Origin: Candidatus Electrothrix rattekaaiensis
GTDB taxonomy: Bacteria; Desulfobacterota; Desulfobulbia; Desulfobulbales; Desulfobulbaceae
Assembly (NCBI GenBank): GCA_032595675.1
Contig: JAVQMD010000001.1
Span: 938,640-962,639 of the forward strand
Direction of reading: 5' to 3'
DNA length: 24,000 nucleotides
Positions 2,380-18,744 of the stretch are shown here, in pieces. The position numbers and the translations under genes were made by a program. The notes below the pieces were generated by a model. The model was not told the origin of the DNA. It saw nothing but the letters and a program-made list of their open reading frames with translations, and did no database searches. How positions within the stretch are numbered: position 1 is the first letter of the stretch; each line of letters starts with the position of its first letter.

Positions 2380-5300
2380 ATGAAAAAAATCAGCCTGTCC
2401 GTTGATGCCGTTCAGATTTCCGTCGAACAGGGCGCAACCATACTGGAAGCAGCCCGCCAAGCCGGAATCACTATTCCGACTCTTTGTCATCTCCCGAAAA
2501 AAACATCTCAAGAGTCTCATTGCGAGGTCTGTGTCGTTGCCTGCGAGGGACGGGAAGGATTCATAAAGTCTTGCTCAACCCCGGTCGAAGAGGGGATGCT
2601 CATTATCACAGAGAATGATGCCATCAAAGCGCATCGCCAGGAACGAATCGCCGCTTTGGCCTCTCTCCATTTTGGGGACTGCAAGGCCCCGTGCAGTATG
2701 ACCTGTCCGGGACAGATCAATGTGCAGGGCTATATCGCCCATGTGGCCAAGGGCCAGTATGCAGAAGCCGTGCGCCTAGTCATGGAGAAAAACCCGCTGC
2801 CTTTTTCCGTGGGTCGTCTTTGCCGGCGTTTCTGCGAGAGTCGTTGCCGTCGGGTTCTGCTGGATGCTCCCATTGCCATTAATCACTTGAAACGCTTTGT
2901 CGCTGATTGGTGCATGAACAATCAGGTCGATCTGAATATTCAGAAGCAACCGGCTACAGGGAAGAAAATTGCCGTTGTCGGCGGCGGGCCTTCCGGTTTG
3001 GCCGGAGCCTATTATTTGGCAAAAAACGGGCATGACGTGACCATCTATGAGACAGAGAAAGAATTGGGCGGATTGCTTCGCTACGCTGTCCCCGAGTTTA
3101 AAGTTCCTAACAAGGTGCTGGATTACGAAATCGCGACCATTCTCAAGCTGGGTATTGAGGTGAAGTGCAATCATCGCCTTGGTCAGGAGGTGAGCATGGA
3201 CGAGCTGAATAAGCAGTTTGACGCGGTCCTGTTGACTGTCGGGGCCGGGGTTGATCAGCCCTTGGAGCTGTCTGGCAGCGACCTGCCCGGTGTTCGACCT
3301 GCTTTAGATTTTCTCCGAAAATATAATGCAGGTGGGGAAGTAAAGCAGGGCCAGAGCGCAGCCGTGATCGGTGGCAATAATCTTGCTATGGAAGCGGCCC
3401 GTGCTTTGCTTCGTCAGGGCTATGAAGTAAGCATTATCAATCCCAAAAAGGATACTTCTGGACTCGGTGCTAACCCGGTAGCGATCAAAGAAGCGGAAAA
3501 GGAAGGGGCACGTTTTCTCTTTCAGGTTGACCCTTGTGAGATCAGGCAGCAGGGTTCTGGGCTGGAATTGGTTATGAATCAGCTGGAGTTAAGTGAACCA
3601 GACAAGAAAGGAAAGCAAAAGCTGCAATCTGTTCCTGACGCCTTTGATGCCCTGCTGGTAGATACGGTCGTGTATGCTCAGGGCCAGATGGTTTGTCAGA
3701 GCAATGAGAATCCAGCGGCTGATGTGGCCCTGAGCTCGAAAAATCTGATCAAGGCCAATGTCAAGACCGCTATGACCAGCATGGATAAGGTCTATGCAGC
3801 TGGCGAGGCAGCTGGCGGCTCCCGTCCCCTGATCCAGGTGGTGAGTTCCGGGCGTAAGGCAGCAGAAAGCATTCATAGTGCTGTGATGGGTCTTGCACCG
3901 GCCCCGGCAGAAAATCGGTTTAATTTTTCACGGGGGAAATCTGCTGATGACCCCAAAATGCTGGAGCGGTTTACCAAGCAGGAACGTACGCCTATGCCTG
4001 CTCGTACACCTGAAACAGCTGTGCTCGATAATGAAGAGGTTAAGCTGGGCTTTGATGAGGCTGCTGCCAAGCAGGAGGCTGATCGTTGCCTGGAATGCGG
4101 TTGCATGGCCTATGATGACTGCGATTTCAAGCAGCTCTGTATTGATAATGATATCAATCTGAATAAAACCGGTATGGGCACAGCACCGGCCTACAGCCTG
4201 GATCAATCTCATCCCATGCTGGATGTGGATTTGAATAAATGTGTCTACTGTCAACGTTGCACCAACGCCTGTGAGTATAATGCACTGGATCTGAGCGCGT
4301 CTTTAGATGAGCAAGGTCGGGCTACAGATATTTCCCTGAGCTTTAACGAAAACTGCGTGAACTGCGGCAACTGCGCTGATCATTGTTCCACCGGAACCAT
4401 TACGAAAAAGGATGTGCTCTCGCCGATTCTTAACGAGGAAACACGCAAGGTGCGCACCACCTGTCCCTATTGCGGGGCCGGTTGTCAGATGCAGCTCAAG
4501 GTCAAGGGCGACACCATTATGGAGGCCACCTCGGAAGCGCATTTGGCCCCCAACTACGGGGCACTTTGCGTCAAGGGGCGGTTCGCCTTCAACTTTGCCC
4601 AGGATAAGGAACGTCTGACCACGCCGTTAGTACGACGGAACGGTAAGCTGGTAGAGGCCACTTGGGATGAAGCCTACGACGTTATTGCCGAGCGGCTGAC
4701 CAAGGTCAAAAAGGAGCACGGGTCGGATTCCATTGCTGGCTTCTCCTGTGCCAGAGCAACCAACGAGGAAAATTTCCTCATGCAGAAGTTTATGCGCACG
4801 GTGATCGGGACGAATAATATCGATCATTGTGCCCGGCTCTGACACGCTCCCACGGTGGCCAGTCTGGCCATCACATTTGGTTCCGGCGCAATGACCAACT
4901 CAATCGCCGATGTTGTTAATAACAAAACAGATCTCTTCTTCATGATCGGGTCCAATCCTGACACCAGTCACCCTACCATCGGCCTGCGCATCCATCAGGC
5001 CTTGGATAAAGGGGATGCGAAATTGGTGGTGGTTGATCCGCGCAGGACCAAGCTGGCAGAACGGGCCGATCTCTGGTTGCGTATCCAGCCGGGAACGGAC
5101 GTGGCCTTCCTCAACGGCTTAATGCATATTATCCTGAAAGAGGATCTCTGGGATAAGGACTTTGTCGCGGAACGCACCGAGGATTTCGAGGAACTGAAAG
5201 AGCTGGTGGAAAATTATCCTCCAGAGCGCGTTGCCGAAATCACCGGACTGACTGTTGCCGAACTGGAACAGGCGGCCCGTATGTATGCGGCTCCCGGTCG

Positions 5301-6480
5301 CAATGCTGTCTACCACGGCATGGGTATCACCCATTACCACACAGGCACAGATCGGGTCAAGTCCATCGCCAATATGGCCATGCTCTGCGGCAAGGTCGGG
5401 GTTGAAGGCGGGGGCTGTAACCCTCTGCGTGGTCAGAACAATGTGCAGGGAGCCTGCGACATGGGTGCCCTGTTCAACACCATGCCCGGTTACGGCGCAC
5501 TGGACAATGATGAGCTGTTCGACAGATATGAAAAACGCTGGGGCGTGAAGCTGCCCCGCCAGCCGGGCAAACCCGCAACTGAAATTTGGGATAATATCCT
5601 GAATGATGAGATCCGCGCTCTGTACGTGTTCGGGGAAGATCCGGCCATTGCTGATGCCAATATTGGCCATGTTCATAGGGCTCTTGATCATCTGGAGTTC
5701 CTGATTGTCCAGGATCTCTTTCTGACCGATACGGCCAAGGAGGCGGATGTGGTCCTGCCTGCGGCCTCTTTTGCGGAAAAGGACGGCACCTTTAGCTCCA
5801 CTGAGCGACGGGTGCAGCGGGTGCGTAAGGCGGTCGAGCCTCCGGGGCAGGCTAAGCCGGATTGGTTGATCTTTACCGAGCTTTCTGAGCGCATGGGCTA
5901 TGCAATGGGCTATGAAAAGCCGGAAGATATCTTTGAAGAGGTCTGTGAGCTGCTGCCCCAGTATCGCGGCATGTCCTATGCCCGACTGGAAGAGGTCGGC
6001 CTGCAATGGCCAGTGCCGGATGCGGATCATCCGGGTACTGCGGTGCTGCATACCGAATCCTTTACGCGCGGCAAGGGGCTGTTTGTGCCGGAAGAGTATA
6101 TGCCGCCCAAGGAGCCGGTGGATGACGAGTATCCCATGCTCTTTACCACAGGCCGCCATTATGCCCGCTATAACTTCAGTAGTATGACCGGCAAAACCCG
6201 TGAGATTGATGATATCGCACCCGAGGCTTTGGCTGAGGTCAATCCTGTTGATGCCGAGCGCATGGGAATTACATCGGGCGATATGTTGCGGCTGACTTCC
6301 CGTCGGGGAACGGTGGATATCAAGGCGGAGATCACCGAGCGCAGCCAGCCCGGTACCATCTTCACCACCTATAACTATGCGGAGACCCCGGTCAACCTGC
6401 TGACCTTGGATGCGCTGGATCGGCTTTCGCGGACGCCTGAGTATAAACTTTGTGCTATTCGGGTTGAGGTTTTGGGGTGA
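2380..6480 (+). CDS. fdhA: Selenocysteine-containing formate dehydrogenase catalytic subunit fused to an N-terminal 2Fe-2S ferredoxin-like + GltD-like (NAD(P)H/FAD, 4Fe-4S) module; 1366 codons including Sec
   Basis: Track ORFs 2380-4842 and 4855-6480 share one frame. Only TGA 4840-4842 separates them, inside the FDH active-site context IDHCARL-U-HAPTVA. Motifs seen:
- GltD-type region CPGQINVQGYI..NPLPFSVGRLCRRFCESRC
- two dinucleotide folds (VVGGGPSGLAGAYYLA; VIGGNNLAMEAARAL)
- 4Fe-4S motifs CVYCQRCTNAC and CVNCGNCADHC
- MopB N-terminal cluster TTCPYCGAGC
- molybdopterin oxidoreductase body and C-terminal MGD-binding domain (TTGRHYARYN ... CAIRVEV)
There is no signal or Tat peptide. GAGGA lies ~11 nt upstream of the ATG. 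Confidence 0.9.
4840..4872 (+). other. In-frame UGA selenocysteine codon plus SECIS-like hairpin
   Basis: TGA is at 4840-4842. The hairpin GGTGGCCA-GTC-TGGCCATC (4854-4872; 8 bp including one G-U) starts 11 nt after the UGA. Its apical loop contains G-U, the layout expected for a bacterial SECIS. Confidence 0.7.
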
Positions 6481-7954: not shown

Positions 7955-8377
7955 TCAAAGCATCTTCCACGGATTCAGTATTGCCTGATGACTCGGGGAA
8001 AAATCTCCTTCATTTCGTGTCACGACAGTCATCTGGTATACTGATGCCGTGGCGGCAATGTACCCGTCAATAATCGACATCCTCTGTCCTGAATCCTCCG
8101 CCCGCGCCTGCATAATCCCCCATGCTTCGGCAACAGCACGATCAACAGGGAGAATCCTGTCACTATAGTCCGCCAGCAGCGTCTCAAGCCACATCATCAG
8201 GTGGCTTTTCTTTTTTGACTCGGGCAGCCGCGTAATACCTCGTTTCAACTCTCCTATTGTGAGGGAACTCAGAAACAGGCGGTCCGCAGGAGTCTGGGCA
8301 AGCCAGTCAGTCACAGCAGTATTTGGTCGAGGTTTGACCAGCTCGGAAATCACGCATGTGTCCAGCAGATAATTCAT
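7955..8377 (-). CDS. vapC: Type II toxin VapC (PIN-domain ribonuclease)
   Basis: 140 aa. N-terminal MNYLLDTCVISE (PIN Asp), then ..IDGYIAATA..TVVTRNEGDF. It overlaps the upstream antitoxin gene by 4 nt (ATGA). Confidence 0.9.
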   Translation of the reverse strand: MNYLLDTCVISELVKPRPNTAVTDWLAQTPADRLFLSSLTIGELKRGITRLPESKKKSHLMMWLETLLADYSDRILPVDRAVAEAWGIMQARAEDSGQRMSIIDGYIAATASVYQMTVVTRNEGDFSPSHQAILNPWKML

Positions 8378-8634
8378 AGGTCGAGTTCCCTCGGATATTC
8401 ATGCTGCCTCTCAAACAGATCGGCATTATTGCCGATTTTTGGAGCACTCAACAGGAAGTCGGTAAACGAGGGCTTCTGCGAGGTCAATTTCTCATAATCA
8501 CGGACCGACAGTACAACGACGGTATCAACACCTCTCCGCTTAACATATTGCGGCCCGTGCGTGAGTGCTTCGTTGACCACTCGACTGAATTTGTTTTTGG
8601 CATCCTGAAGTGCCCAAGTTGTTCTTCTTATCAT
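8374..8634 (-). CDS. Type II antitoxin, Phd/YefM family
   Basis: 86 aa. TWALQDAKNKFSRVVNEALTHGPQYVKRRGVDTVVVLSVRDYEKL is the typical Phd/YefM N-terminal fold signature. AAGGAGAA RBS upstream; translationally coupled to vapC. Confidence 0.85.
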   Translation of the reverse strand: MIRRTTWALQDAKNKFSRVVNEALTHGPQYVKRRGVDTVVVLSVRDYEKLTSQKPSFTDFLLSAPKIGNNADLFERQHEYPRELDL

Positions 8635-8676
8635 ATATTGTTCTCCTTGCAGTTATTTCTTTTTAGCACCTTCCAC

Positions 8677-8712
8677 CTAGACAGTCTAGCTGTATTTTAG
8701 GATATTCGTCAA
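8677..8712 (-). promoter_or_regulatory. Candidate autoregulated promoter/operator of the phd-vapC operon
   Basis: On the minus strand: TTGACG (complement of 8707-8712), an 18-nt spacer, then TAGACT. The perfect palindrome CTAGAC-A-GTCTAG (8677-8689) overlaps the -10, ~45 nt upstream of the start at 8634. Confidence 0.4.
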
Positions 8713-8743
8713 GATTTTTCTTACTAATCCAATTTTTGTGAAT

Positions 8744-8870
8744 TTGGGACAGACCACGTTTTCGTTTTTTATCCAACCGGATACGCCACCATATTCCGGC
8801 AGGATTACTTTTCCTCCTGAATCTTCACACATTCTCAACCGAAACATGCTGTAAATGTTTAGTTAGTGTG
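8744..8870. repeat. Dispersed repeat, copy C (downstream of the second TA cassette)
   Basis: CGCCACCATATTCCGGCAGGA (8784-8804) matches CGCCCCATATTTCGGCAGGA (10490-10509). CTGAATCTTCACACATTC (8817-8834) matches CTGAATTTTCACGCATTC (10523-10540). A TAGTTAG block follows in both. The 5' block GGGACAGACCACGTTTT parallels GGG(T/C)CAGA(G/C)TCGATT of copies A and B. Confidence 0.6.
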
Positions 8871-8932
8871 AGGCAGCCATTTTGTTATGCGGAGCAACAG
8901 TAATCAGGGCATCTTTCAACGGAACAAGCCAT

Positions 8933-9322
8933 TCAATCCCAAGCAGCCAATTCGTACTCTCTCCTGATCACCTGATCCTTTGTCAACAGCACAGCCTGAT
9001 GAGTCGCCGCTGTGGCGGTAATGATCCTGTCAAACGGATCTTTTGTCCACGACATCCGCATTGCTTCCGTCATCACCCTGGCAAAAGATGAACGACATTT
9101 TTGCAGGCCTATACTCTCTGCAAGTGAATCAAATATCACGGTGGGTTCAACAGTGATTCTCTTGATTTCAAACAGATATTGAAGTTCAAGCAATACTAGC
9201 GGAGAAATCAGCAGTTCGTTTTCCTCTATGAGTTGACCGGCTTTTTCAGAGAGCAGGCTCGGATCACCACTGTACAGCCAGACCACAACATGGGTATCAA
9301 GGTAAATCATGTTTCCACTCAT
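8933..9322 (-). CDS. vapC: Type II toxin, PIN domain (VapC-like)
   Basis: 129 aa. MIYLDTHVVVW (PIN Asp) ... DPFDRIITATA..LLTKDQ. The start could be ATG 9322 or ATG 9310. Either way it overlaps the upstream antitoxin's 3' end. Confidence 0.85.
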   Translation of the reverse strand: MSGNMIYLDTHVVVWLYSGDPSLLSEKAGQLIEENELLISPLVLLELQYLFEIKRITVEPTVIFDSLAESIGLQKCRSSFARVMTEAMRMSWTKDPFDRIITATAATHQAVLLTKDQVIRREYELAAWD

Positions 9323-9527
9323 CCGACCAGTCTATATGGACTAAAGACTCCGGGGCCCCTTGTATACAGGCATGTTTTGTCAGTCGAGACAGCTTGGAAA
9401 CCGGTTTTTTCGGGGTGATTTGTAATCGCTGTCCCTTCCTTTCCACTTCCAGAGGTCTGCCTGATTGGAGTACCTTATCAAGAAGCTTGTAGATATTGCC
9501 CCGCAGGGCTGATGCGGTAATCGACAT
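9297..9527 (-). CDS. Type II antitoxin, Phd/YefM-like
   Basis: 76 aa. SALRGNIYKLLDKVLQSGRPLEVERKGQRLQI is a typical Phd/YefM N-terminus. The imperfect palindrome ACGACTGTA-GTA-TACAGTGTCGT (core CTGTAGTATACAG 9560-9572) lies ~35 nt upstream and is a possible operator. Confidence 0.8.
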   Translation of the reverse strand: MSITASALRGNIYKLLDKVLQSGRPLEVERKGQRLQITPKKPVSKLSRLTKHACIQGAPESLVHIDWSDEWKHDLP

Positions 9528-9867: not shown

Positions 9868-10119
9868 ATGCCATCTTTACAAGTGAGAGAGTTGCCGGTT
9901 AATATTTATCATCGTTTGCAAAAAAGGGCGAAAGCGGAACATCGCAGTCTTGCCCAGGAGGCTGTCGTTACCTTGGCAAGAGGTATGGAGACCGCTGTTT
10001 CCCATAAAGATCGCAGGAGAAAATTGCTTCGGACTATTGCTGAGCAAACATGCTTTGTAGGCAAAAAAAGGGCATCTGTGGATCCTGTTCAACTTGTCAG
10101 GGAGGATCGTGAGCGATGA
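9868..10119 (+). CDS. Ribbon-helix-helix antitoxin (FitA/VapB-like)
   Basis: 83 aa. MPSLQVRELPVNIYHRLQKRAKAEHRSLAQEA is the RHH signature (beta-strand, then helices). RBS AGGGAGAAG. Its stop overlaps the ATG of the downstream PIN gene (ATGA at 10116-10119). Possible promoter: TTGCAT (9788-9793), 17-nt spacer, TATTCT (9811-9816), with inverted repeat TGCAT/ATGCA inside the spacer. Confidence 0.7.
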   Translation: MPSLQVRELPVNIYHRLQKRAKAEHRSLAQEAVVTLARGMETAVSHKDRRRKLLRTIAEQTCFVGKKRASVDPVQLVREDRER

Positions 10120-10340
10120 TCGCTGTCCTTGATGCAAGTGCGGCCAGTGGAAGTTGTTCTGCAACGCCCTATGGCAGGGCAGCTGAGTAGGTATCTGAGT
10201 GAGGCGGACTGGGTGGCCGCGCCGACTCTGTTTATTTCGGAAGTCACGAATGTTTTTTGGAAATATCAGCGGTTGACAGACCTTTCTTTGCAGGACTGTG
10301 AGCGAGGCCTTGAACAAGCTGTTGCTCTACCTGATGATGT
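10116..10340 (+). pseudogene. vapC: vapC-like PIN toxin gene, frameshifted and 3'-truncated
   Basis: ATG 10116 gives MIAVLDASAA and then runs out of frame to TAG 10188-10190. The PIN sequence continues in the +1 frame (VEVVLQRP..EADWVAAPTLFISEVTNVFWKY..) in track ORF 10129-10440. This is consistent with one extra base near 10146. PIN-like sequence is lost after ..AVALPDD (~10340), and the C-terminal acidic residues are missing. Confidence 0.6.
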
Positions 10341-10448
10341 TATCGTAAATAGGGGACGTAGCACGTTTTTCAATAATCCCTCCCACCGTTCCATTCGTTT
10401 GCGTAATTATTCCCTTGCCAATTGCATGCTCCCAAGATAAATTTGCAA

Positions 10449-10612: not shown

Positions 10613-11005
10613 ATGATAAAACAGGAAACACATAGTGTGGCAATGGGGTACATCCTCTGGATCTTCGGTTTCATGGGGATGCATCGATTCTACTACGGCA
10701 AACCGATCTCCGGCACCGTGTATTTTTTCACGCTGGGCTTGCTCGGTATCGGTTGGATCATTGATCTGTTTCTGATTCCGGGTATGGATCGTGAAGCTGA
10801 CCTTCGCTTTGCTCCGGGATCTAAAGATTATAATATATGCTGGATTTTACTGGTCTTCCTTGGAGTTTTTGGGGTTCATCGTATGTACATGGGAAAGTGG
10901 CTGAGCGGAATCCTCTATCTTCTTACATTAGGGGTATTCGGTTTAGGTATCCTTTACGATCTCTGGACCCTGAATGATCAGCTCTCGCTCGTGAATGCTG
11001 CGTGA
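10613..11005 (+). CDS. TM2 domain-containing membrane protein (two TM2 repeats)
   Basis: 130 aa. GYILWIFGFMGMHRFYYGK..GIGWIIDLFLIP and LVFLGVFGVHRMYMGK..GLGILYDLWTL match the TM2-domain pattern (G.HRFY.G ... D). Strong RBS AAGGAGAG. Confidence 0.85.
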   Translation: MIKQETHSVAMGYILWIFGFMGMHRFYYGKPISGTVYFFTLGLLGIGWIIDLFLIPGMDREADLRFAPGSKDYNICWILLVFLGVFGVHRMYMGKWLSGILYLLTLGVFGLGILYDLWTLNDQLSLVNAA

Positions 11006-11097: not shown

Positions 11098-11700
11098 TCA
11101 TGTCACCTTTTTATCATAAAGAACCAGAAAGACCAGCAGCGTAATAAAGAGCCCCACATGGATCATAAGCAGCAGGGCCGCAGTGGTAAAAGAAGCTGAA
11201 AAGCCTCCGCTCTGGAGCTTGAGATCATTACGTGCGAAAAAGTTTTTCTGAAACGTTTTCTTATCAGCTTCACTCGGCACGTATAAGGTGTAGGACTCTG
11301 AGTCATTTTTAAACGGCAGGGCGACGCCATGCCGCTGATAAATAAGTTGGGCTGCAATACGCCGTTTATTGCCACTGACTGCGGTAACCAGATACTCTGC
11401 CAACTCCTCCTGTATTCCTTTGTTCACTTCTTCCGCGATTTGTTGCTGCATAGCAAAGCTCCCGCGAATGATAACCAGCAGGAAGGAAATATTAACAAAA
11501 AATATAGCGATAAAGAACAGAGCAAAATATTTTCTTTTTTCCTGATTCGCAACCTGCCAAAAACTGACCGGCAGCAAAACAGACAGAAGCAATGCGAAGG
11601 GAAATTGAATCGAATCCTGTTTAACCAGTTCAGGAAAGAAGCAGTAACCCAGCAGAAAGAACGCCCAGATGAGACCGGTCACCCCAGTTATTTTCTTCAT
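11098..11700 (-). CDS. Hypothetical polytopic membrane protein
   Basis: The first ATG is at 11700 (MKKITGVTGLIWAFFLL..). The longer track ORF to 11844 begins with TTG and adds a non-hydrophobic leader. There are four to five hydrophobic segments and no recognised family. Confidence 0.55.
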   Translation of the reverse strand: MKKITGVTGLIWAFFLLGYCFFPELVKQDSIQFPFALLLSVLLPVSFWQVANQEKRKYFALFFIAIFFVNISFLLVIIRGSFAMQQQIAEEVNKGIQEELAEYLVTAVSGNKRRIAAQLIYQRHGVALPFKNDSESYTLYVPSEADKKTFQKNFFARNDLKLQSGGFSASFTTAALLLMIHVGLFITLLVFLVLYDKKVT

Positions 11701-12067
11701 ATTTTCCAAACAAATTGAGTGTAAGGGGAGGGTTGATGAAAATAATCGTCCAAGATATGCCTCCCTAAGAACAGGAATTTTGCTACCTCTGTCTACCTTC
11801 TCGGTGACGGTCTGAGCTTCTCTGGTAGTGTAGCCCCTTGACAAGGGAACGCAAGAGCTAATCTTATTTTCTTTACTCGTGGCACGGTGTTGTACTAAAA
11901 AATGGTGTTCCAGGTGCTCGTTGACTTTTTTTTATGTTGCCAGATCACCAAGGAGTTTATATATATTAAAAGTAAAAAAAACTTTACCGCTTGTATCCGG
12001 AGAGAATGCAGTTCGTCCGAAATACGGGCAATGAGATAAACTTCACAGAACAAGGAGAGTGAGAACC

Positions 12068-13189
12068 ATGAAACTGAAAGTGTTGGCACAGGCTGCTGTT
12101 TTAGTCGTGCTGTCGGCGGGTGTCGCCTTTGCCGGAGGCAGAGCCTTCACCTGCGACGACTGCTCCGATGAATGTTTGGAAAATCCTTACAGCAAAGGAT
12201 GTCCTTCCGTCTGTAAAGATCCAGAATGTCAATCATCCCAAGCATCCTGCGACGACTGCTCAGATGAATGCAAAAAAAACCCGTATGGTGCAGATTGCCC
12301 AGATATCTGTAGGGATGTAACTTGCCAGTCCTGCGAGGACTGTACGGACGAATGTAAAATCAACCCCTATGGCGAAGGCTGTCCCGATATATGCCGTGAC
12401 ATAAAATGTTACAGTTGTGACGACTGTTCTGTAGAGTGTATCGAGAATCCTGAAGGACAGGATTGTCCGCCTGTCTGTGACGAGTTGGGTTGTAATATTT
12501 GCGATAAATACCCCACTGACTGCCCTGCATCCTGCAAAGAAGGATCTCAGGATCAGGAAGGCTGTCCGGCTGAATGTCAGGATGTACCGGAAGAGTGCCT
12601 GTCTGATGACTCTACAGAAACAACTGCAGCGATCACTTGTGATGACTGCCCAGCAGAATGTGAAGACAACCCCTATGCAAAAGGTTGCCCAGCAGAATGT
12701 CAGGAACTCGATTGTTACGGCGGCGGAGTAATGGGACCACTTCGTTTTGTTGGCGACATCGGTTACCTGCGTCTTTCCGATCCGGCTGATTATCTCTTTG
12801 CCCGTCTGGGTGTGGAGTACAGCCCCTTTGCAGCAGGCACCTCACTTGAAAATCTTTCTTTCCTGGCTATGGTCGGTGCCGCTCCAAAGCTGGATGGTTC
12901 TGACGGTGACGATGCGCTGTTGATGGATGTCTTTGCCCAGTACAACTGGTCCGGTACCTTTGACGGCTTTATCGGTCTTGGTTTCGGTGGTTGGATCACA
13001 GATAATGACAGCAATCTTGACTCTGATGACTCTGATCTCGACTTTCTGGCTAATATCGGAGCACGTGTATACGGCGATCAAGATGACTTCAATGTTTCCG
13101 TCTTCCTGGAAGCTCGAAATGCTGTTGATGAGCTGAGCGACATGGATCAATATGGACGTTTTGGTATAGGGTTGCGCTTCCAGCGCTAA
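12068..13189 (+). CDS. Secreted cysteine-rich repeat protein (6 x 6-Cys modules) with Cys-free C-terminal beta-rich domain
   Basis: ATG 12068 follows RBS AAGGAGAG (12052-12059). Signal peptide MKLKVLAQAAVLVVLSAGVAFA. Six tandem modules lie at 12152-12715 with spacing C-x2-C-x3-C-x8-C-x3-C-x4-C (CDDCSDECxxNPYxxxCPxxCxxxxC). The C-terminal ~150 aa has an alternating hydrophobic pattern (..FIGLGFGGWIT.., ..GRFGIGLRFQR). Stop TAA 13187-13189. Confidence 0.8.
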   Translation: MKLKVLAQAAVLVVLSAGVAFAGGRAFTCDDCSDECLENPYSKGCPSVCKDPECQSSQASCDDCSDECKKNPYGADCPDICRDVTCQSCEDCTDECKINPYGEGCPDICRDIKCYSCDDCSVECIENPEGQDCPPVCDELGCNICDKYPTDCPASCKEGSQDQEGCPAECQDVPEECLSDDSTETTAAITCDDCPAECEDNPYAKGCPAECQELDCYGGGVMGPLRFVGDIGYLRLSDPADYLFARLGVEYSPFAAGTSLENLSFLAMVGAAPKLDGSDGDDALLMDVFAQYNWSGTFDGFIGLGFGGWITDNDSNLDSDDSDLDFLANIGARVYGDQDDFNVSVFLEARNAVDELSDMDQYGRFGIGLRFQR

Positions 13190-13262
13190 TTGTTCGTATC
13201 ATAGAGAAGTAGCAGCCGTACAGCAGCGAAGTAAAGCTTCTTGCAAAGGAAGCTTCTACAAA

Positions 13263-13294
13263 GGGCACAGGGAATTTTCCCTGTGCCCTTTTTT
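13263..13294 (+). terminator. Rho-independent terminator after the Cys-rich gene
   Basis: GGGCACAGGG (13263-13272), loop AATTTT, CCCTGTGCCC (13279-13288), then T6 (13289-13294). A second hairpin precedes it: AAGCTTCTT-GCAA-AGGAAGCTT (13234-13255). Confidence 0.75.
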
Positions 13295-13471
13295 GCTTGT
13301 CTCTTACCGAAAGAGAAGAAGGTAGAGGGGGAGGGGGGAGTATAAAGAGGGGATTATGGAAATGGAACAGAGGGGGGGAACCGGCGAGCAAACGCCTCGG
13401 TTAATAGAGGGCAATTAGAGGGCAATGGTATGCAGGAGCAACACCGTTGCCCTCATCATTAGCTACGCCCC

Positions 13472-13657
13472 TTAGGACTCAGTAACAGTGATGGCGTCTG
13501 ACTCGCAAACTTCCACACAGGTCTCACAACCGAGACATTCGTCTTCGTTTACCGGGTCTGATTTTCCATCAACGAACTCGAATACTCCGGCGGGGCAGGA
13601 ACCGACACACTCTTCACAACCTGTACATTTATCTTTGTCTACAACGACTTCAAACAT
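13472..13657 (-). CDS. Small 2x[4Fe-4S] ferredoxin
   Basis: 61 aa with two CxxCxxCxxxCP-type motifs ([12 protein letters not shown]; [12 protein letters not shown]). RBS AAGGAGA upstream. A hairpin GAGGGCAATGGT..ACCGTTGCCCTC (13418-13454) lies just downstream of the stop. Confidence 0.9.
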
Positions 13658-14029
13658 TGTCTTTCTCCTTAGTAGCGGCCTCTAACGAGCCCTTTTTATA
13701 AAAGTAACCTTACGATTAATTATGCACAAACAATATATATTGACTTGGGCAAAGATACCCTTAATATTTTTGCTGTCAATATTTTTTTTACGTGACCAGC
13801 TTTGTCAGATATTCCCTTAGACTGAACCTGTACTCCTTGGCAGTAAAACGAAAAAATATCCTTCAAATAACACACAAGAAAATAAAGCTTTTTCCCTTGC
13901 TTGCAACACCGTTCTTCTCCCTCCACAAGCTCACTCAACCAAGCATTATTTTCAATCCAAGGAGGTAACCTTCTCTTTCCTCCATCTCACAATAAAAACG
14001 CTTCATCATCTACATTTTTCTCCTACAGC

Positions 14030-14104: not shown

Positions 14105-14707
14105 ATGCATATTTCAGAAGGAATTCTCTCGGCACCGGTTCTGATAAGCGGCGGAGTTTTTACTGCCATTGGCACCTTTATTGGGTTGAAAAAAATTGAT
14201 CTTGAACAGATTATGCCTGTTGCTCTGCTTTCCGCTGCTTTTTTTGTTGCAGGACTTGTTCATGTTCCTCTCGGGCCGGGATCCGTACACCTGATGCTCA
14301 TCGGACTTCTTGGTGCCATGCTGGGCTGGGCTGCTTTCCCGGCAATTCTTATCGCTCTTTTTCTTCAGGCCCTGTTTTTCCAATTCGGCGGTTTTGCCGT
14401 CCTCGGGGTGAACACGGTCATAATGTCTGCTCCAGCACTCTGCTGTTATTATTTGACCCGTCCTTGGATGGACAATCCCAAAACACGACCTGCTGCCGCA
14501 TTTATTGCAGGCTTCTTGGCAATTTTCCTGGCCTCGCTACTGACCGCCTGTGCTCTTGCCCTTACCGATACCGGTTTTACAGCTGCTGCGCAACTCATTA
14601 TTGCAGCCAATGTTCCGCTCATGATCATTGAAGGATGTATCACCATGTTTACTGTCGGTTTTCTCGCCAAGGTCCAACCAGAAATTTTACACCTCGAATA
14701 CGCATGA
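14105..14707 (+). CDS. cbiM: CbiM/NikM-family Ni2+/Co2+ ECF substrate-capture (S) component
   Basis: 200 aa. It begins with the hallmark MHISEGIL (Met1-His2 metal-binding N-terminus) and has multiple TM helices (..VHLMLIGLLGAMLGW.., ..NVPLMIIEGCITMF..). Its stop overlaps the next start (ATGA 14704-14707). Confidence 0.9.
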   Translation: MHISEGILSAPVLISGGVFTAIGTFIGLKKIDLEQIMPVALLSAAFFVAGLVHVPLGPGSVHLMLIGLLGAMLGWAAFPAILIALFLQALFFQFGGFAVLGVNTVIMSAPALCCYYLTRPWMDNPKTRPAAAFIAGFLAIFLASLLTACALALTDTGFTAAAQLIIAANVPLMIIEGCITMFTVGFLAKVQPEILHLEYA

Positions 14708-15309
14708 ATCGCTCTCGTCTCCTGGCAATACTCTTCTTTGCCGTATTGTTTTCGTTGTTCGCGCGGTCTGCTCAAGCGCATAAGATGAGTGTGTTTTCAT
14801 GGGCAGGTGACCAGCAGATTTACGGAGAGGCTTTTTTTAGCGGAGGGCGTAAGGTAAAAAATATACCGGTTCACGTTCAAAACAACGAAACCCAAACCAC
14901 CCTGCTGACAACCCAAACCGACGACAAAGGAAAGTTCCAATTCAGCCCTCCTCAACAGGCTGTTCAGCAAAAGCTAGATCTCTTGATCACAGTGGATTCC
15001 GGGGATGGTCATCGAGGAGAATGGCTTCTGACAGCAGACGAGTATCTTTTAACAGACGATGCCCCTTTGTCGGCTCCTCAAAAAGATCGACCAACGGCAG
15101 AGGGCTTTGACGTGGAGACTGTACGTGAAATCGTGCGGCAAGAGCTGAAGAGAGAATTGGTCCCCATTAAACGGCATCTTGCTGAAGGAAGCGAAAAAAA
15201 AGTCAACCCACGGGATATACTGGGCGGGGTCGGCTGCATTATCGGGCTGGCTGGCATCTTTGCCTGGTTCCAATCAAAAAAGAAGAAGAAAACTTCGACA
15301 GACGGATAA
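14704..15309 (+). CDS. NikL-like accessory protein (signal/anchor, periplasmic beta-sandwich-like domain, C-terminal TM anchor)
   Basis: ATG 14704 is coupled to the cbiM stop. N-terminal MNRSRLLAILFFAVLFSLFARSAQA|HKM. The middle region (..IPVHVQNNETQTTLLTTQTDDKGKFQFSPP..) resembles CarboxypepD_reg/transthyretin-like folds. C-terminal TM ILGGVGCIIGLAGIFAWF is followed by KKKKK. The position after nikM matches the NikL slot of NikKMLQO-type systems. Assignment is by context only. Confidence 0.6.
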   Translation: MNRSRLLAILFFAVLFSLFARSAQAHKMSVFSWAGDQQIYGEAFFSGGRKVKNIPVHVQNNETQTTLLTTQTDDKGKFQFSPPQQAVQQKLDLLITVDSGDGHRGEWLLTADEYLLTDDAPLSAPQKDRPTAEGFDVETVREIVRQELKRELVPIKRHLAEGSEKKVNPRDILGGVGCIIGLAGIFAWFQSKKKKKTSTDG

Positions 15310-15390: not shown

Positions 15391-16158
15391 ATGAAGATCA
15401 AAGCTGTCGCTGCAACTGCACTCTTTCTCGCCTGCATGACAGGTGAGGCCCTTGCCCATTTCGGAATGATTATCCCCTCGGAGAATATCCTGACACCGAA
15501 AAAGAAGAGCGTTCAACTTGACCTCTCTTTTTCCCATCCTTTTGAAATAATCGGTATGGAATTGGATAAGCCGAAAGCATTCTTTATGGTGTCTGGCGAT
15601 CAGAGAACAGACTTGATTCCGTCTCTCAAAGCGACCAAAGTGATGGATAACCCGAGCTGGACAACGCAAGTTTCCATCAAACGTCCTGGAGTATATACCT
15701 TTGTCATGGAGCCGACCCCGTATTGGGAACCAGCTGAAGACTTGCATATCATCCATTACACCAAAACCATAATTGCCGCCTTTGGTGATGATCAAGGCTG
15801 GGATGAGCCTGTGGGGATTGCCACAGAAATCGTCCCACTGACCCGTCCCTTTGGGAATTATGCAGGCAACAGCTTTTCTGGCCAAGTCTTACTGGACGGA
15901 AAGCCGGTTCCCGGTGCGGAGGTCGAAGTGGAGCTGTACAATAAGGACAAGAAATTCAGTGCTCCCAGCGATTACCACGTCACCCAGGTCGTCAAGGCTG
16001 ACGAAACCGGGGTTTTCACCTTTGCTTGTCCCCAAGCAGGATGGTGGGGGTTTTCCGCCCTGAATGAAGCCGACTATACCATCAAGGATCCTGAAGGCAA
16101 CGAGAAAGGGGTTGAGCTGGGTGCTGTGCTTTGGACCTATCTGGATGCCTACAAATAG
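15391..16158 (+). CDS. DUF4198 / NikK-like periplasmic metal-binding component
   Basis: RBS AAAAGGAG. Signal peptide MKIKAVAATALFLACMTGEALA|HFGMIIPS. The body (..VYTFVMEPTPYWEPAED.., ..GQVLLDGKPVPGAEVEVELYN.., ..DETGVFTFACPQAGWWGF) fits the DUF4198 pattern (COG5266-type periplasmic component). Confidence 0.75.
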   Translation: MKIKAVAATALFLACMTGEALAHFGMIIPSENILTPKKKSVQLDLSFSHPFEIIGMELDKPKAFFMVSGDQRTDLIPSLKATKVMDNPSWTTQVSIKRPGVYTFVMEPTPYWEPAEDLHIIHYTKTIIAAFGDDQGWDEPVGIATEIVPLTRPFGNYAGNSFSGQVLLDGKPVPGAEVEVELYNKDKKFSAPSDYHVTQVVKADETGVFTFACPQAGWWGFSALNEADYTIKDPEGNEKGVELGAVLWTYLDAYK

Positions 16159-16611
16159 AAACGTTTCTTCTCCAGCCTTTTCAGAAAGAGAGCTTTGCTG
16201 GCAACCTCCAGGTTTCCGGCACCCTTGCCCGCAGCGTAACCGGCCTTCTGGTCAGTTATGAGCTCAGCGGCAACCTGGATGATCTCTTTCTTCCTGCTCT
16301 GAGGAGCTCGTCCCGCCGCAGGGACGGGCTCTGGCTATGCTCTCTCCCTTTGCGGTTCCCAGCCTGATTTCCATCAACGGGAAAGCTTTCTGGTGCGGCT
16401 CTAACGGCTCTCACTGGAACGTATGTAATACTCCCCCCTCTGCCGATTGCCTTGGCAAGCCCGCCCCGCTCCCCTGCCTGTTACCATTTCCCTGTTCGAC
16501 AGCAGCGAGAAACTCTGCTATATAGATTCAATGCTTGGAGGGGCGCAGAAGGCATTGCAGGGAACGTCGCTCCTGACGCAACAACAACCTGAATCCAAGG
16601 GGAGAGACATC

Positions 16612-18744
16612 ATGGGAGATACGTCCGGCAACAGCAGGTTCGACAAGAGTGGCAGCGGCGACCAGAATGTTGGTCAGGGCGATGGGGCTATTGGTAAGCA
16701 GGTGAACGTCACGCAGGAGGTGCGTGGGAACAACAATATCTCCTCCGGTACCGGTAATGTCACGGTGACCTACAACAGCATTTCCCCTGATGTGCTTGCT
16801 GATGTCCGCAAGCTGGCCGTTACTGATGCCGCCCTTGCCAGCTTCTTCAAGATACTGGAGGAGCAGCAGGTTCCGCACAGCGACCTGGACAACAAGCTGC
16901 GGGAGATAGCCGGGCAGTACAAGGAGCTGCTTCTGCGCCTGGAGACCGTGCAGTCGGAAGACCCGCAGGTACAGCGGCTCAAGGAAGAGGCGGGACAGGC
17001 CATTGAGGCTGGTGATTACGCCAAGGCCGAGGAGCTGCTGAATCAAGCCGAGGCCCGCGATGTGCAGGCGATAGAGCAGCTTGAGGAGGCCATCAAGCAA
17101 CAACAGGATGCGGCCCGGCAGCGGCGTATCTCTGCTGCTGATACCAATGTTTCCCAAGCCCTTGCCCAGCGTATGCAGTTGCGCTATGCCAAGGCTGCCG
17201 AGTATTGGCAGAAGGCCGCTACCCTGCTGCCGGAAGACCAGAAGAAGGAACGCTCGCTTTATCTGAGTAACGCAGGATATGACTTCCACCGGGTTGCTCG
17301 CTACAACGATGCCCTGCCCCTGTTTGAGCAGAGCTTTGCGATAGACCAGGAGATCGGCTTCAAGGCAGGACAAGGCGCGACGCTGAGTAACATCGGTGCG
17401 ATTCACCATGCCAAGGGTGACTACGATAAAGCCCTGCCCTTGTTTGAGCAGAGCGTAGCTATATTTCATGAGAGCGGCGGCAAGGCGGAAGAAGGTGCCT
17501 TGCTGAACAACATCAGCCAGATTTACAAGGCGCGGGGCGACTACACCACGGCCCTCAAGTATCTGGAGCAGAGCCTTGTCATCAGGCAGGAGATTGGCGA
17601 CAAGGCAGGGGAAGGCACGACGCTGAACAACATCGCTGGTATTCACAGGGCGCGGGGCGACTACACCACCGCCCTCACGTATCTGGAGCAGAGCCTTGTC
17701 ATCAGGCAGGAGATTGGCGACAAGGCAGGGGAAGGCACGACGCTGAACAACATCAGCCAGATTTACGATGCGCGGGGCGACTACACCACCGCCCTCAAGT
17801 ATCTGGAGCAGAACCTTGTCCTCTTCCGAGAGATTGGTGATAAGGCTCATGAAGGAGGCACCCTGAACAACATCAGCCAGATTTACGATGCACGGGGCGA
17901 CTACGACACCGCCCTCACGTATCTGGAGCAGAGCCTTGTCATCACGCAGGAGATCGGCGACAAGGCAGGGGAAGGCACGACCCTGAACAACATCAGCCAG
18001 ATTTACAAGGCGCGGGGCAACTACGCCACCGCCCTCAAGTATCTGGAGCAGAGCTTGGCGATAATGCAGGAGATCGGGGCCAAGATGGAGGAGGCGGTTA
18101 TGAGCTGGAACATCGGCATGATTTACGATGCGCGGGGCGACTACACCACCGCCCTCAAGTATCTGGAGCAGAGCCTTGTCATCAGGCAGGAGATCGGCGA
18201 CAAGGCCGGGGAAGGCACGACCCTGAGTAACATAGGTGCGATTCACCATGCCAAGGGCGAGTACGCCGCCGCCCTCAAGTATCTGGAGCAGAGCCTTGTC
18301 ATCAGGCAGGAGATTGGTGATAAGGCAGGGGAAGGCGCGACGCTGAGTAACATCGGTGCGCTTCACCATGTCAAGGGCGACTACGACAAGGCCCTGCCCT
18401 TGTTTGAGCAGAGCGTAGCTATATTTCACGAGAGCGGCAGCAAGGCGGAAGAAGGTGCCTTGCTGAACAACATCAGCCAGATTTACGATGCGCGGGGCGA
18501 CTCCGCCACCGCCCTCAAGTATCTGGAGCAGAGCCTTGTCATCACGCAGGAGATCGGGGCCAAGATGGAGGAGGCGGTTATGAGCTGGAACATCGGCATG
18601 ATCTACAAGAAGCAGGGCGACCTGCGCAAGGCGGAGCAGTACATCAGCCGGGCTGTGCAGCTTGCCGAGGAGATCGGTCATCCTTCCTTGGAGAAATACC
18701 GCGAGGGATTGGCAACGGTACGGGCGGCGATCAAGGCGCGGTAG
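16612..18744 (+). CDS. Tetratricopeptide-repeat protein (about twelve 40-aa TPR_10/12-like units) with N-terminal Gly/Asn-rich and coiled-coil region
   Basis: ATG 16612 is preceded by AAGGGGAGAG. Alternative starts are ATG 16531 and TTG 16447, neither with an RBS. Repeat consensus: ALKYLEQSLVIRQEIGDKAGEGTTLNNISQIYDARGDYTT. Stop TAG 18742-18744. Confidence 0.85.
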   Translation: MGDTSGNSRFDKSGSGDQNVGQGDGAIGKQVNVTQEVRGNNNISSGTGNVTVTYNSISPDVLADVRKLAVTDAALASFFKILEEQQVPHSDLDNKLREIAGQYKELLLRLETVQSEDPQVQRLKEEAGQAIEAGDYAKAEELLNQAEARDVQAIEQLEEAIKQQQDAARQRRISAADTNVSQALAQRMQLRYAKAAEYWQKAATLLPEDQKKERSLYLSNAGYDFHRVARYNDALPLFEQSFAIDQEIGFKAGQGATLSNIGAIHHAKGDYDKALPLFEQSVAIFHESGGKAEEGALLNNISQIYKARGDYTTALKYLEQSLVIRQEIGDKAGEGTTLNNIAGIHRARGDYTTALTYLEQSLVIRQEIGDKAGEGTTLNNISQIYDARGDYTTALKYLEQNLVLFREIGDKAHEGGTLNNISQIYDARGDYDTALTYLEQSLVITQEIGDKAGEGTTLNNISQIYKARGNYATALKYLEQSLAIMQEIGAKMEEAVMSWNIGMIYDARGDYTTALKYLEQSLVIRQEIGDKAGEGTTLSNIGAIHHAKGEYAAALKYLEQSLVIRQEIGDKAGEGATLSNIGALHHVKGDYDKALPLFEQSVAIFHESGSKAEEGALLNNISQIYDARGDSATALKYLEQSLVITQEIGAKMEEAVMSWNIGMIYKKQGDLRKAEQYISRAVQLAEEIGHPSLEKYREGLATVRAAIKAR
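17281..18600 (+). repeat. Eleven tandem 120-bp coding repeats inside the TPR gene
   Basis: The units sit in register at 17281, 17401, ... 18481. Many are near-identical (for example 17521-17640 vs 17641-17760). Higher-order duplications also occur: 17401-17520 ~ 18361-18480 and 18061-18120 ~ 18541-18600. Confidence 0.9.

Follow-up and report, generated by a model that had tools for sequence, protein, structure and literature searches.

The small outer-membrane barrels of bacteria, among them the N-terminal domain of OmpA, OprF, OmpX, NspA, PagL and OmpW, are built from eight antiparallel amphipathic strands, and in OmpA the barrel serves as membrane anchor for a second domain. Cysteine-rich proteins are found in other families. 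The twin-CX3C and CX9C hairpins of small Tim proteins, CHCH proteins and the like are either disulfide-stapled or, when reduced, metal-bound (zinc in small Tims, copper in Cox17), and the related-looking alpha-hairpinins also occur as tandem modules. The chlamydial proteins OmcA and OmcB are cysteine-rich and associated with the outer membrane, and their cysteines lend the envelope particular mechanical or redox properties. Here we describe a gene on a 24,000-nt stretch of the genome of Candidatus Electrothrix rattekaaiensis (contig JAVQMD010000001.1, positions 938,640 to 962,639; this whole stretch is called the window below). The gene lies at 12068..13189 on the plus strand and, according to its translation and a database identity, encodes a 373-aa cysteine-repeat protein of the outer membrane, in which an array of six-cysteine modules precedes a C-terminal barrel. 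The protein is thus cysteine-rich and outer-membrane-associated like OmcA and OmcB, but it differs from them in sequence, fold, repeat architecture, anchor and taxon. As an anchor, the barrel is of a known kind; the cysteine module and the family as a whole are undescribed, and their combination is without a characterised counterpart.

In the list of open reading frames (ORFs) the frame runs from 12059 to 13189 (+). We take the ATG at 12068 to be the real start, because a ribosome-binding site (AAGGAG, 12052-12057) lies ten bases before it and because MKLKVL is the N-terminus of all orthologues. In a protein search the product was identical to MDU9048021.1 (Q3M30_04175) of Candidatus Electrothrix sp. 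Rat3 (E. rattekaaiensis), in line with the hint at cable bacteria given by a first-pass annotation that had been made from the letters of the window alone. That annotation had also called a Sec-type signal peptide without twin-arginine, and inspection of the sequence agrees with it: aa 1-22 (12068..12133, +) read MKLKVLAQAAVLVVLSAGVAFA, followed by GG, contain no RR motif and no lipobox, and are kept in all orthologues. A lipoprotein and a substrate of the twin-arginine translocation (Tat) pathway were dismissed for lack of a lipobox and of an RR motif, respectively. Heme binding was dismissed as well, since there is neither a histidine nor a CxxCH motif.

The mature N-terminal part is dominated by cysteine. 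All 36 cysteines, exactly the number counted in the first-pass annotation, fall within aa 29-216, and cysteine makes up 18% of the region, Asp 14% and Glu 10.5%, while His is absent; the net charge across aa 23-221 is -37. A regular-expression scan found the pattern C-x2-C-x3-C-x8-C-x3-C-x4-C five times exactly, so that the six identical modules proposed earlier are in fact five exact repeats and one divergent unit. The first four lie in succession: module 1 (aa 29-54, 12152..12229), all six cysteines of which are invariant, module 2 (aa 61-86, 12248..12325), module 3 (aa 89-114, 12332..12409) and module 4 (aa 117-142, 12416..12493). They are followed by the divergent unit (aa 145-177, 12500..12598), which reads C-x6-CPxxC-x9-CPxxC-x6-C, a spacing of x6, x3, x9, x3 and x6, and whose six cysteines are invariant in both genera of cable bacteria. 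An acidic linker (aa 178-190, 12599..12637) that varies in length and sequence among orthologues leads to module 6 (aa 191-216, 12638..12715). This last module matches the pattern but is dispensable, being absent from the aligned orthologues of E. aestuarii, YB6, F3 and others. All of these segments are on the plus strand.

Structure prediction with AlphaFold2 (AF2), both on the full-length protein and on the cysteine region alone, modelled each module as two short helical arms with predicted local distance difference test (pLDDT) values of 76-89. Module 3 has the highest values of the array (84-89), and pLDDT drops below 50 at aa 182-186 in the acidic linker. The two arms of each module are separated by an invariant N-P-Y-x-x-G-C-P loop. 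The spacing 2-3-8-3-4 within the module is nearly palindromic: C1, C2 and C3 stand at i, i+3 and i+7 and hence on one helical face, and C4 to C6 come back on the other arm. We infer that three cysteines of one arm face three of the other, an arrangement that may be called a cysteine ladder. Every exact module also contains a twin CX3C core (C2-x3-C3, x8, C4-x3-C5) with a helix-loop-helix assignment by DSSP. In this respect the predicted modules resemble those of small Tim and CHCH proteins and alpha-hairpinins, where C-x3-C, a loop and a second C-x3-C also make up the hairpin. They differ in having six instead of four cysteines per hairpin and a much shorter loop of 8 aa, in sitting in a bacterial protein with a predicted outer-membrane anchor, and in lacking detectable homology to these proteins in Pfam, NCBIfam, PDB sequence and Foldseek-PDB searches.

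No other known family accounts for the module either, which upholds the earlier statement that it belongs to none. Pfam and NCBIfam scans of the whole protein gave nothing at E<=1. The sole match of PDB sequence searches with the whole protein, the barrel profile and the cysteine-domain profile was the Ste50 SAM domain at E 0.06, a chance match. A Foldseek search of the PDB with the separate model of the cysteine domain returned 0 matches at E<=10, and a word-indexed search with the cysteine region alone found only five fragments, all from the same family. Judging from its sequence, the 26-residue six-cysteine module is an undescribed domain. It shares with metallothioneins and the copper storage protein (Csp) family a very high cysteine content (18-19% of the domain), strict conservation of the cysteines and the lack of histidine, and its cysteines at i, i+3 and i+7 would occupy one helix face as those of Csp1 do. 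Unlike metallothioneins, which are small proteins with C-x-C, C-C and C-x-x-C clusters, few aromatic residues and no stable fold in the absence of metal, the array has no C-x-C or CC motif and no Pfam match, contains seven Tyr, and is predicted to be folded into helical modules (pLDDT 76-89). Unlike Csp, it shows no four-helix bundle and no match by hidden Markov model (HMM) or Foldseek, and it would be anchored in the outer membrane instead of being soluble.

The relation to ferredoxins needs a closer look. The first-pass annotation had held that the spacing is not that of ferredoxins. This is true within the modules, but the junctions 2/3 and 3/4 are two residues long and therefore read C-x2-C-x2-C-x3-C. 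Together with a C-P eight residues further on and a period of about 28 aa, reminiscent of the half-domains of 2x[4Fe-4S] ferredoxins and of polyferredoxins, and with a ferredoxin gene next door, these junctions could suggest a polyferredoxin-like conduit of Fe-S or other metal clusters that is anchored in the outer membrane. We consider such an electron conduit extremely unlikely. No Fer4-family HMM matches at E<=1, there are six instead of four cysteines per period, no proline follows the fourth cysteine of the ferredoxin-like junctions, and the aligned orthologues do not preserve a two-residue junction between modules 1 and 2. Moreover, the signal peptide is of the Sec type, not the Tat type. 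Export of an unfolded chain by Sec and insertion by the beta-barrel assembly machinery (BAM) exclude cluster loading in the cytoplasm, and we know of no periplasmic Fe-S assembly system. The argument of the first-pass annotation that Sec export speaks against a pre-assembled Fe-S protein is thereby strengthened, as far as established export pathways allow us to say. The ferredoxin encoded next door lacks a signal peptide and is a cytoplasmic protein.

The C-terminal part (aa 217-373) contains no cysteine, as had been noted before. AF2 prediction on a 47-sequence alignment (mean pLDDT 79.6 for the whole protein) shows eight long strands between aa 225 and 372 with pLDDT of about 90, and AF2 and Foldseek together define a C-terminal 8-stranded beta-barrel domain at aa 222-373 (12731..13186, +). 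In the Foldseek search of the PDB the matches were, in this order, OmpA (1qjp), OprF (4rlc), OmpA again, PagL (2erv), NspA (1p4t), OmpW and OmpX. The OmpA transmembrane domain 1qjp was best, with E 6e-5 and a template modelling (TM) score of 0.67 normalised to the target; overall, the barrel matches had E-values of 6e-5 to 1e-3, target-normalised TM scores of 0.58-0.69 and sequence identities of 9-20%. Hydrophobic and polar faces alternate clearly in 7 of the 8 strands (mean Kyte-Doolittle values of 1.5-3.5 versus -2.7 to 0), and barely differ in the first (0.82 versus 0.57). Since no Pfam or NCBIfam model of outer-membrane proteins (OMP_b-brl, OmpA_membrane and similar) matches the barrel at E<=1, we assign it at the level of the fold only. 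The UniRef entry of the E. aarhusensis orthologue is labelled 'Outer membrane protein beta-barrel domain-containing protein'. That the C-terminal 150 residues form an OmpA/OmpX-type barrel anchoring the protein in the outer membrane is well supported by these predictions, and the outer-membrane anchor that had been mentioned as one possibility in the first-pass annotation is now the preferred assignment. As in OmpA, the barrel of this Sec-signalled protein apparently serves as anchor for a second domain, but the order is reversed, with the barrel at the C-terminus and the extra domain at the N-terminus. It also differs from the known small barrels in that all connecting loops are acidic and, in marine Electrothrix, in its non-aromatic terminus. 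The window protein ends in ...GIGLRFQR, with Phe third from the end; the terminal residue is F in the Electronema orthologues and in all paralogues, and R, H, Y, Q or L in marine Electrothrix.

On which side of the membrane the array lies can be judged from topology. To our knowledge, characterised 8-stranded barrels of this type have both termini in the periplasm and no lumen for a passenger, and for these reasons the N-terminal residues (approximately 190) most likely hang in the periplasm just beneath the outer membrane. The alternative would be an array on the cell surface, acting as an adhesin or as a coat that interacts with minerals or metal sulfides. Some proteins with C-terminal barrels, such as autotransporters and the Helicobacter Hop adhesins, do display their N-terminal domains outside the cell. 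Since each of the seven strand connections of the window protein is short or acidic whichever side it lies on, loop lengths are uninformative on the orientation and leave room for this alternative. However, only eight strands are predicted, with no extra N-terminal strand ahead of the cysteine array, known barrels of this size offer no passage for a passenger, and structurally the protein comes closest to OmpA, OmpX and NspA, not to autotransporter barrels. We therefore regard a surface location as very unlikely.

A search of 5.8 billion proteins yielded 54 relatives. Every relative with an organism name came from Candidatus Electrothrix, from Candidatus Electronema or from one of the early single-filament assemblies named 'Desulfobulbus sp.', which cluster with these two; this restriction to cable bacteria is defined by the named hits and by a genome scan with one peptide pattern, and metagenomic hits without a taxon are unassigned. 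The scan covered one genome per GTDB species and gave 21 loci. Cysteine-rich orthologues are present in at least eight Electrothrix and at least six Electronema species-level genomes, and a further protein search seeded with the barrel profile gave fragments for the most part and no additional taxa. It is thus well supported that the cysteine-rich form is a Sec-exported outer-membrane protein whose named members are all from cable bacteria. Most orthologues have exactly 30 or 36 cysteines, and the first 30 are invariant when 19 orthologues of the two genera, with 53-87% identity, are aligned. When the window gene was compared with six Electrothrix orthologues by the Nei-Gojobori method, the ratio of nonsynonymous to synonymous substitution rates (dN/dS) was 0.04-0.06 in the cysteine region and 0.03-0.12 in the C-terminal domain, values to be read with synonymous sites near saturation. 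Constraint on the cysteine region that equals or exceeds that on the barrel argues against a mere spacer. The modules themselves differ at synonymous sites (mean DNA column identity among modules, 76%), and Tandem Repeats Finder called no tandem array in the DNA of the module region. Therefore, the repeats are old and have been kept by selection, not generated by slippage, and a recent low-complexity expansion was dismissed.

The barrel belongs to a larger, though still small, family: its domain profile matches only 102 cluster representatives among 1.84 billion. Family members (P0034-P0054 and P0056-P0149 in our collection; loci L020 and L024-L031) occur in cable bacteria, Desulfopila and metagenomic bacteria, and those with the same barrel and only 1-8 cysteines are found in cable bacteria and in metagenome-assembled genomes (MAGs) of Desulfopila. 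Most have 320-500 aa and a common architecture of signal peptide, N-domain, variable linker and barrel. The conserved N-terminal domain of about 150 aa (IGRHPFHQPPL...WMLF...CGNLAL) has no Pfam model, nor has the barrel of the family. The linkers consist of proline-rich stretches, PKD domains or alveolin-like VPGPERIV repeats, which NCBI labels 'IMCp'. A few cable-bacteria paralogues (P0029, P0031-33 and P0043) combine the N-domain with a cysteine-rich linker. By comparison of these architectures, the subgroup of the window protein has lost the N-domain and keeps the cysteine array only, which marks the array as the functional part of the subgroup.

Two loci show such relatives side by side with other genes. 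At locus L031 (8001-10584) of Candidatus Electronema sp. PJ, P0031, a paralogue with N-domain and cysteine-rich linker, is immediately followed by a cysteine-rich orthologue (351 aa, 30 Cys), and a small cytochrome c gene adjoins the pair. The PJ gene pair suggests that the cysteine array arose in the linker and that the N-domain was lost later. At locus L029 (2440-9155), from an Electrothrix MAG, the paralogue P0036 with alveolin-like repeats is found downstream of a metal ABC transporter of the ZnuABC type, separated from it by four small hypothetical proteins that look secreted or lipoprotein-like, some of them containing proline and cysteine. P0036 may thus be a second family member near a metal-uptake system, although this could be a coincidence.

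What could the array do? Cable bacteria carry conductive fibres in the periplasm, beneath ridges of the outer membrane, with a core containing nickel and sulfur and a protein shell (PMC8238962); the nickel is coordinated by sulfur (PMC8238962, PMC13534509). A recent model describes the fibre as a bundle of Ni(ethene-tetrathiolate) nanoribbons with 'protein wrapping', and the structures calculated for it by density functional theory (DFT) include oligomers capped by S-S links to cysteine (PMC13534509). According to the preprint version of that work, fibres have an S/Ni ratio of 7.3 +/- 1.6, their sulfur coming from the cysteine and methionine of fibre proteins besides the Ni complex; an extra Raman band has been tentatively assigned to 'cysteine links', and copper and sulfur colocalise in the junction cartwheels (10.1101/2025.10.10.681601). 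A search for conserved periplasmic nickel proteins in strains GS and RB brought up only a NikA-like protein (PMC11976967). Our preferred reading, held tentatively and at somewhat less than even confidence, is that the acidic helix-loop-helix cysteine ladders face the periplasm and bind or tether soft metal or Ni-S fibre material. They would form a thiolate-rich, redox-switchable surface that binds either soft metals (Ni, Cu) or sulfur-terminated Ni-dithiolene material, and the protein would act as an outer-membrane tether, a scaffold or a metal buffer for periplasmic nickel/sulfur structures. It would be neither an enzyme nor an electron carrier of its own. A more specific version, which we think improbable, is that the ladders nucleate, cap or cross-link Ni-dithiolene nanoribbons to the inside of the outer-membrane ridges, or supply part of square-planar NiS4 centres. 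Cross-linking could, for example, proceed by S-S or Ni-S bonds to the terminal sulfurs, by analogy with the cysteine-capped 'structure IV' of the published DFT models.

The main rival to metal or Ni-S binding is a purely structural role without any metal. Here each module would be an alpha-hairpin stapled by disulfides (C1-C6, C2-C5 and C3-C4), and the array a rigid acidic rod that spaces the outer membrane from, or cross-links it to, the underlying envelope layers. Six cysteines per module in near-palindromic spacing, the predicted helix-loop-helix fold and the likeness of the twin C-x3-C to known disulfide hairpins, as in small Tim proteins and plant alpha-hairpinins, are all in keeping with such a stalk. 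So is the finding that, where the array would be, the paralogues have what are clearly spacers (PKD domains, proline-rich stretches or VPGPERIV repeats). On the other hand, a dN/dS of about 0.05 across all module positions and the invariant NPY...CP loop are more than a spacer needs, and the orthologue group has discarded the globular N-domain, so the array itself must be functional. Cable bacteria also spend part of their life in sulfidic sediment, and disulfides exposed there are labile; the extreme charge of -37 suggests cation binding. The stalk is accordingly possible but doubtful to us. Binding of metal or Ni-S material is favoured because all module positions are constrained in an extremely acidic array that was kept when the N-domain was lost, and because the compartment in question holds Ni/S fibres in organisms that spend part of their life in sulfide.

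Several observations weigh against metal or Ni-S binding. The even number of cysteines per module and their palindromic spacing fit three disulfides per module equally well. In the published model the nickel sits on dithiolene ligands, not on cysteines (PMC13534509). The periplasmic orientation of the array is a prediction from the general topology of outer-membrane proteins, and the terminal Arg of the window protein is not the canonical aromatic residue of the beta-signal of these proteins. The locus tags and accessions of the gene were not found in the searched literature or supplements, a search outside of which the proteome of Kjeldsen et al. 2019 PNAS lay. Finally, the ferredoxin and nickel-uptake genes that follow the gene in Electrothrix (see below) are absent from this position in the Electronema-type loci JC, KV, halotolerans, TJ, UBA5173, S01.Bin068, V4 and PJ, and their conserved order could simply reflect shared ancestry within Electrothrix.

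The neighbours of the cysteine gene in the window had been described as an opposite-strand ferredoxin followed by a nikM-nikL-nikK trio, and Pfam and NCBIfam matches bear this out. The ferredoxin gene (13472..13657, minus strand) is convergent with the cysteine gene and encodes a 61-aa 2x[4Fe-4S] protein (Pfam Fer4, Fer4_7 and related). It is followed on the plus strand by nikM (CbiM/NikM, 14105-14707; Pfam/NCBIfam), by nikL (NikL family NF058648 of NCBIfam, with a probable start at 14704 and its end at 15309) and by nikK (DUF4198, NikK-like in Pfam, 15391-16158), which we treat, with nikM and nikL, as genomic context. On the other side, a divergent gene in the ORF list (11098..11700, minus) encodes a membrane protein of about 200 aa with unassigned function; it has no Pfam match, shows 65-83% identity in the loci L008-L011 and is a neighbour kept in Electrothrix only, the corresponding neighbour in Electronema being non-homologous. 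'fd' and 'hyp.' are drawn beside nikMLKQ in Fig. 2C of Hiralal et al. 2024, without analysis (PMC11247825).

In the closed genomes of GW3-4 (E. antwerpensis) and E. aestuarii, one common gene order surrounds the cysteine gene: a sigma-54 regulator, the membrane hypothetical (minus), divergent from the cysteine gene, the ferredoxin gene (minus), nikM-nikL-nikK-nikQ, a haloacid dehalogenase (HAD) gene and a pyruvate:ferredoxin oxidoreductase (PFOR) gene. A tblastn search with the neighbours placed the ferredoxin and nikM/L/K directly downstream of the cysteine gene in MFD10219, aarhusensis, laxa, S24.Bin023, YB6 and marina as well. E. gigas has the ferredoxin and nikL/K downstream and nikM elsewhere (tblastn), a displacement of nikM that Hiralal et al. 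had noted (PMC11247825). The ferredoxin and nikM/L/K thus follow the cysteine gene in all seven Electrothrix loci of the collection scan with sufficient flanking sequence, besides GW3-4 and E. aestuarii. The block of membrane hypothetical, cysteine gene, ferredoxin and nikMLK is kept in nine Electrothrix genomes, Rat3 and E. gigas included. In the Rat3 window, both outer flanks are unlike those of other Electrothrix and nikQ is missing, and the core block is nevertheless intact. The situation in Electronema is different: in V4 and PJ the cysteine gene is flanked by unrelated genes, or by the paralogue and the cytochrome c gene. The conserved neighbourhood with metal-uptake genes, which the first-pass annotation had named as a test, therefore holds in nine Electrothrix genomes and in no Electronema locus, that is, at the level of the genus only. 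As support for a link to nickel, the synteny is weak.

These data also bear on the possibility that the protein is a periplasmic accessory of the adjacent NikMLK transporter, capturing nickel or cobalt with thiolates that compete with sulfide and handing the nickel on to NikK/NikL. The cysteine gene adjoins the ferredoxin-nikMLK genes in every Electrothrix genome examined, even after rearrangement of the flanks, and the set of nickel-homeostasis genes is expanded in cable bacteria (PMC11247825). Against this, the cysteine gene has a promoter-like site and a strong terminator to itself and is monocistronic; the ferredoxin gene on the opposite strand lies between it and nikM, and co-transcription with nikM is not indicated. 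The upstream regions of the cysteine gene and nikM have no conserved k-mer of >=9 nt in common, and neither of them contains an E. coli-type NikR box. The Electronema orthologues lie away from nik genes, so co-location is not found wherever the cysteine gene occurs, and the NikMLKQO operons of Desulfocapsaceae have been reported without such a partner (PMC11247825). Taken together, a hand-off role seems unlikely. The converse idea of the first-pass annotation, an envelope scaffold supplied by the adjacent Ni/Co uptake system, finds no support here: transporters of the NikMLK type import nickel into the cytoplasm and hence cannot directly supply a periplasmic scaffold.

The intergenic region between the ferredoxin gene and nikM has features of its own. 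An imperfect inverted repeat with 20-nt arms 30 nt apart (13725-13794) overlaps promoter-like hexamers. Of 9 Electrothrix genomes, 8-9 share conserved 12-mers such as GCAAAGATACCC and AAAAATATTGAC here. The inverted repeat, which is not an E. coli-type NikR box, may be an operator of the nik or the ferredoxin gene.

Upstream of the cysteine gene, we read a putative sigma-70 promoter from the sequence (11937..11965, +), with a -35 element TTGCCA (11937-11942), a 17-nt spacer and a -10 element TATATA (11960-11965). Our promoter scan demands a T at the last -10 position and accordingly omitted TTGCCA-17-TATATA. Across nine Electrothrix genomes the block hardly varies. A search for sigma-54 promoters gave matches at chance level and none upstream of the cysteine gene. 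The promoter is followed by a conserved 5' leader of about 100 nt that includes the ribosome-binding site (11972..12067, +); its mean column identity in the alignment of nine Electrothrix genomes is 79%, against a coding sequence that is nearly saturated at synonymous sites. Altogether some 155 nt (11915-12067) 5' of the gene are nearly invariant in these genomes, and a possible hairpin encloses the ribosome-binding site. Rfam found no match in the leader or in the whole window, and no tRNA was found in the window. Because the alifold consensus of the leader is weak and has 0 compensatory pairs, we do not claim a structured RNA. At the other end, the strong terminator reported earlier was recovered by terminator and inverted-repeat scans: the intrinsic terminator (13260..13297, +) consists of a hairpin at 13260-13291 with perfect 15-nt arms (stem 14-15 bp) and a 2-nt loop, followed by a T-run.

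The remainder of the window contains a few further features of note. The segment 16400-23000 has a GC content of 0.57-0.60, compared with 0.44-0.50 around it, and carries a 765-aa protein with tetratricopeptide repeats (16447-18744), an AIM24/GYF protein, an ORF resembling PD-(D/E)XK nucleases and several ORFs without annotation. It occupies the place of nikQ, HAD and PFOR in other Electrothrix genomes and is possibly an insertion or a rearrangement. At 2380-6480 (+) we found a formate-dehydrogenase-like fusion gene with 2Fe-2S, GltD-like FAD/NAD, Fer4 and molybdopterin domains that is split by an in-frame TGA (4840-4842). The context NNIDHCARL*HAPTV is what we take to be the classical selenocysteine site of FdhA, and the two ORFs are probably a single gene for a selenocysteine-containing protein of about 1366 aa. 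Between this gene and the block of the cysteine gene lie several pairs of small genes that resemble toxin-antitoxin systems, in which PIN-domain proteins have short partners upstream (7955-9527 and 9868-10440), as well as a membrane protein with a TM2 domain (10613-11005).

Work on what underlies centimetre-scale conduction in cable bacteria, at the level of molecules and genes, has so far identified neither a fibre protein nor a gene for cofactor assembly (PMC8238962, PMC13534509, PMC11976967). The gene described here is a concrete and cheaply testable candidate for a protein partner of Ni/S conduction, since its named cysteine-rich members all come from cable bacteria, occur in both genera and are under strong purifying selection, and since 30-36 thiols are predicted to lie directly under the outer membrane, where the fibres are. 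The link to conduction is circumstantial. Even if the array should prove to be a mere disulfide-stapled spacer, a new six-cysteine module and an unannotated barrel family with paralogues would remain. If the protein is indeed a partner of the fibres, it would offer the first genetic handle on their assembly.

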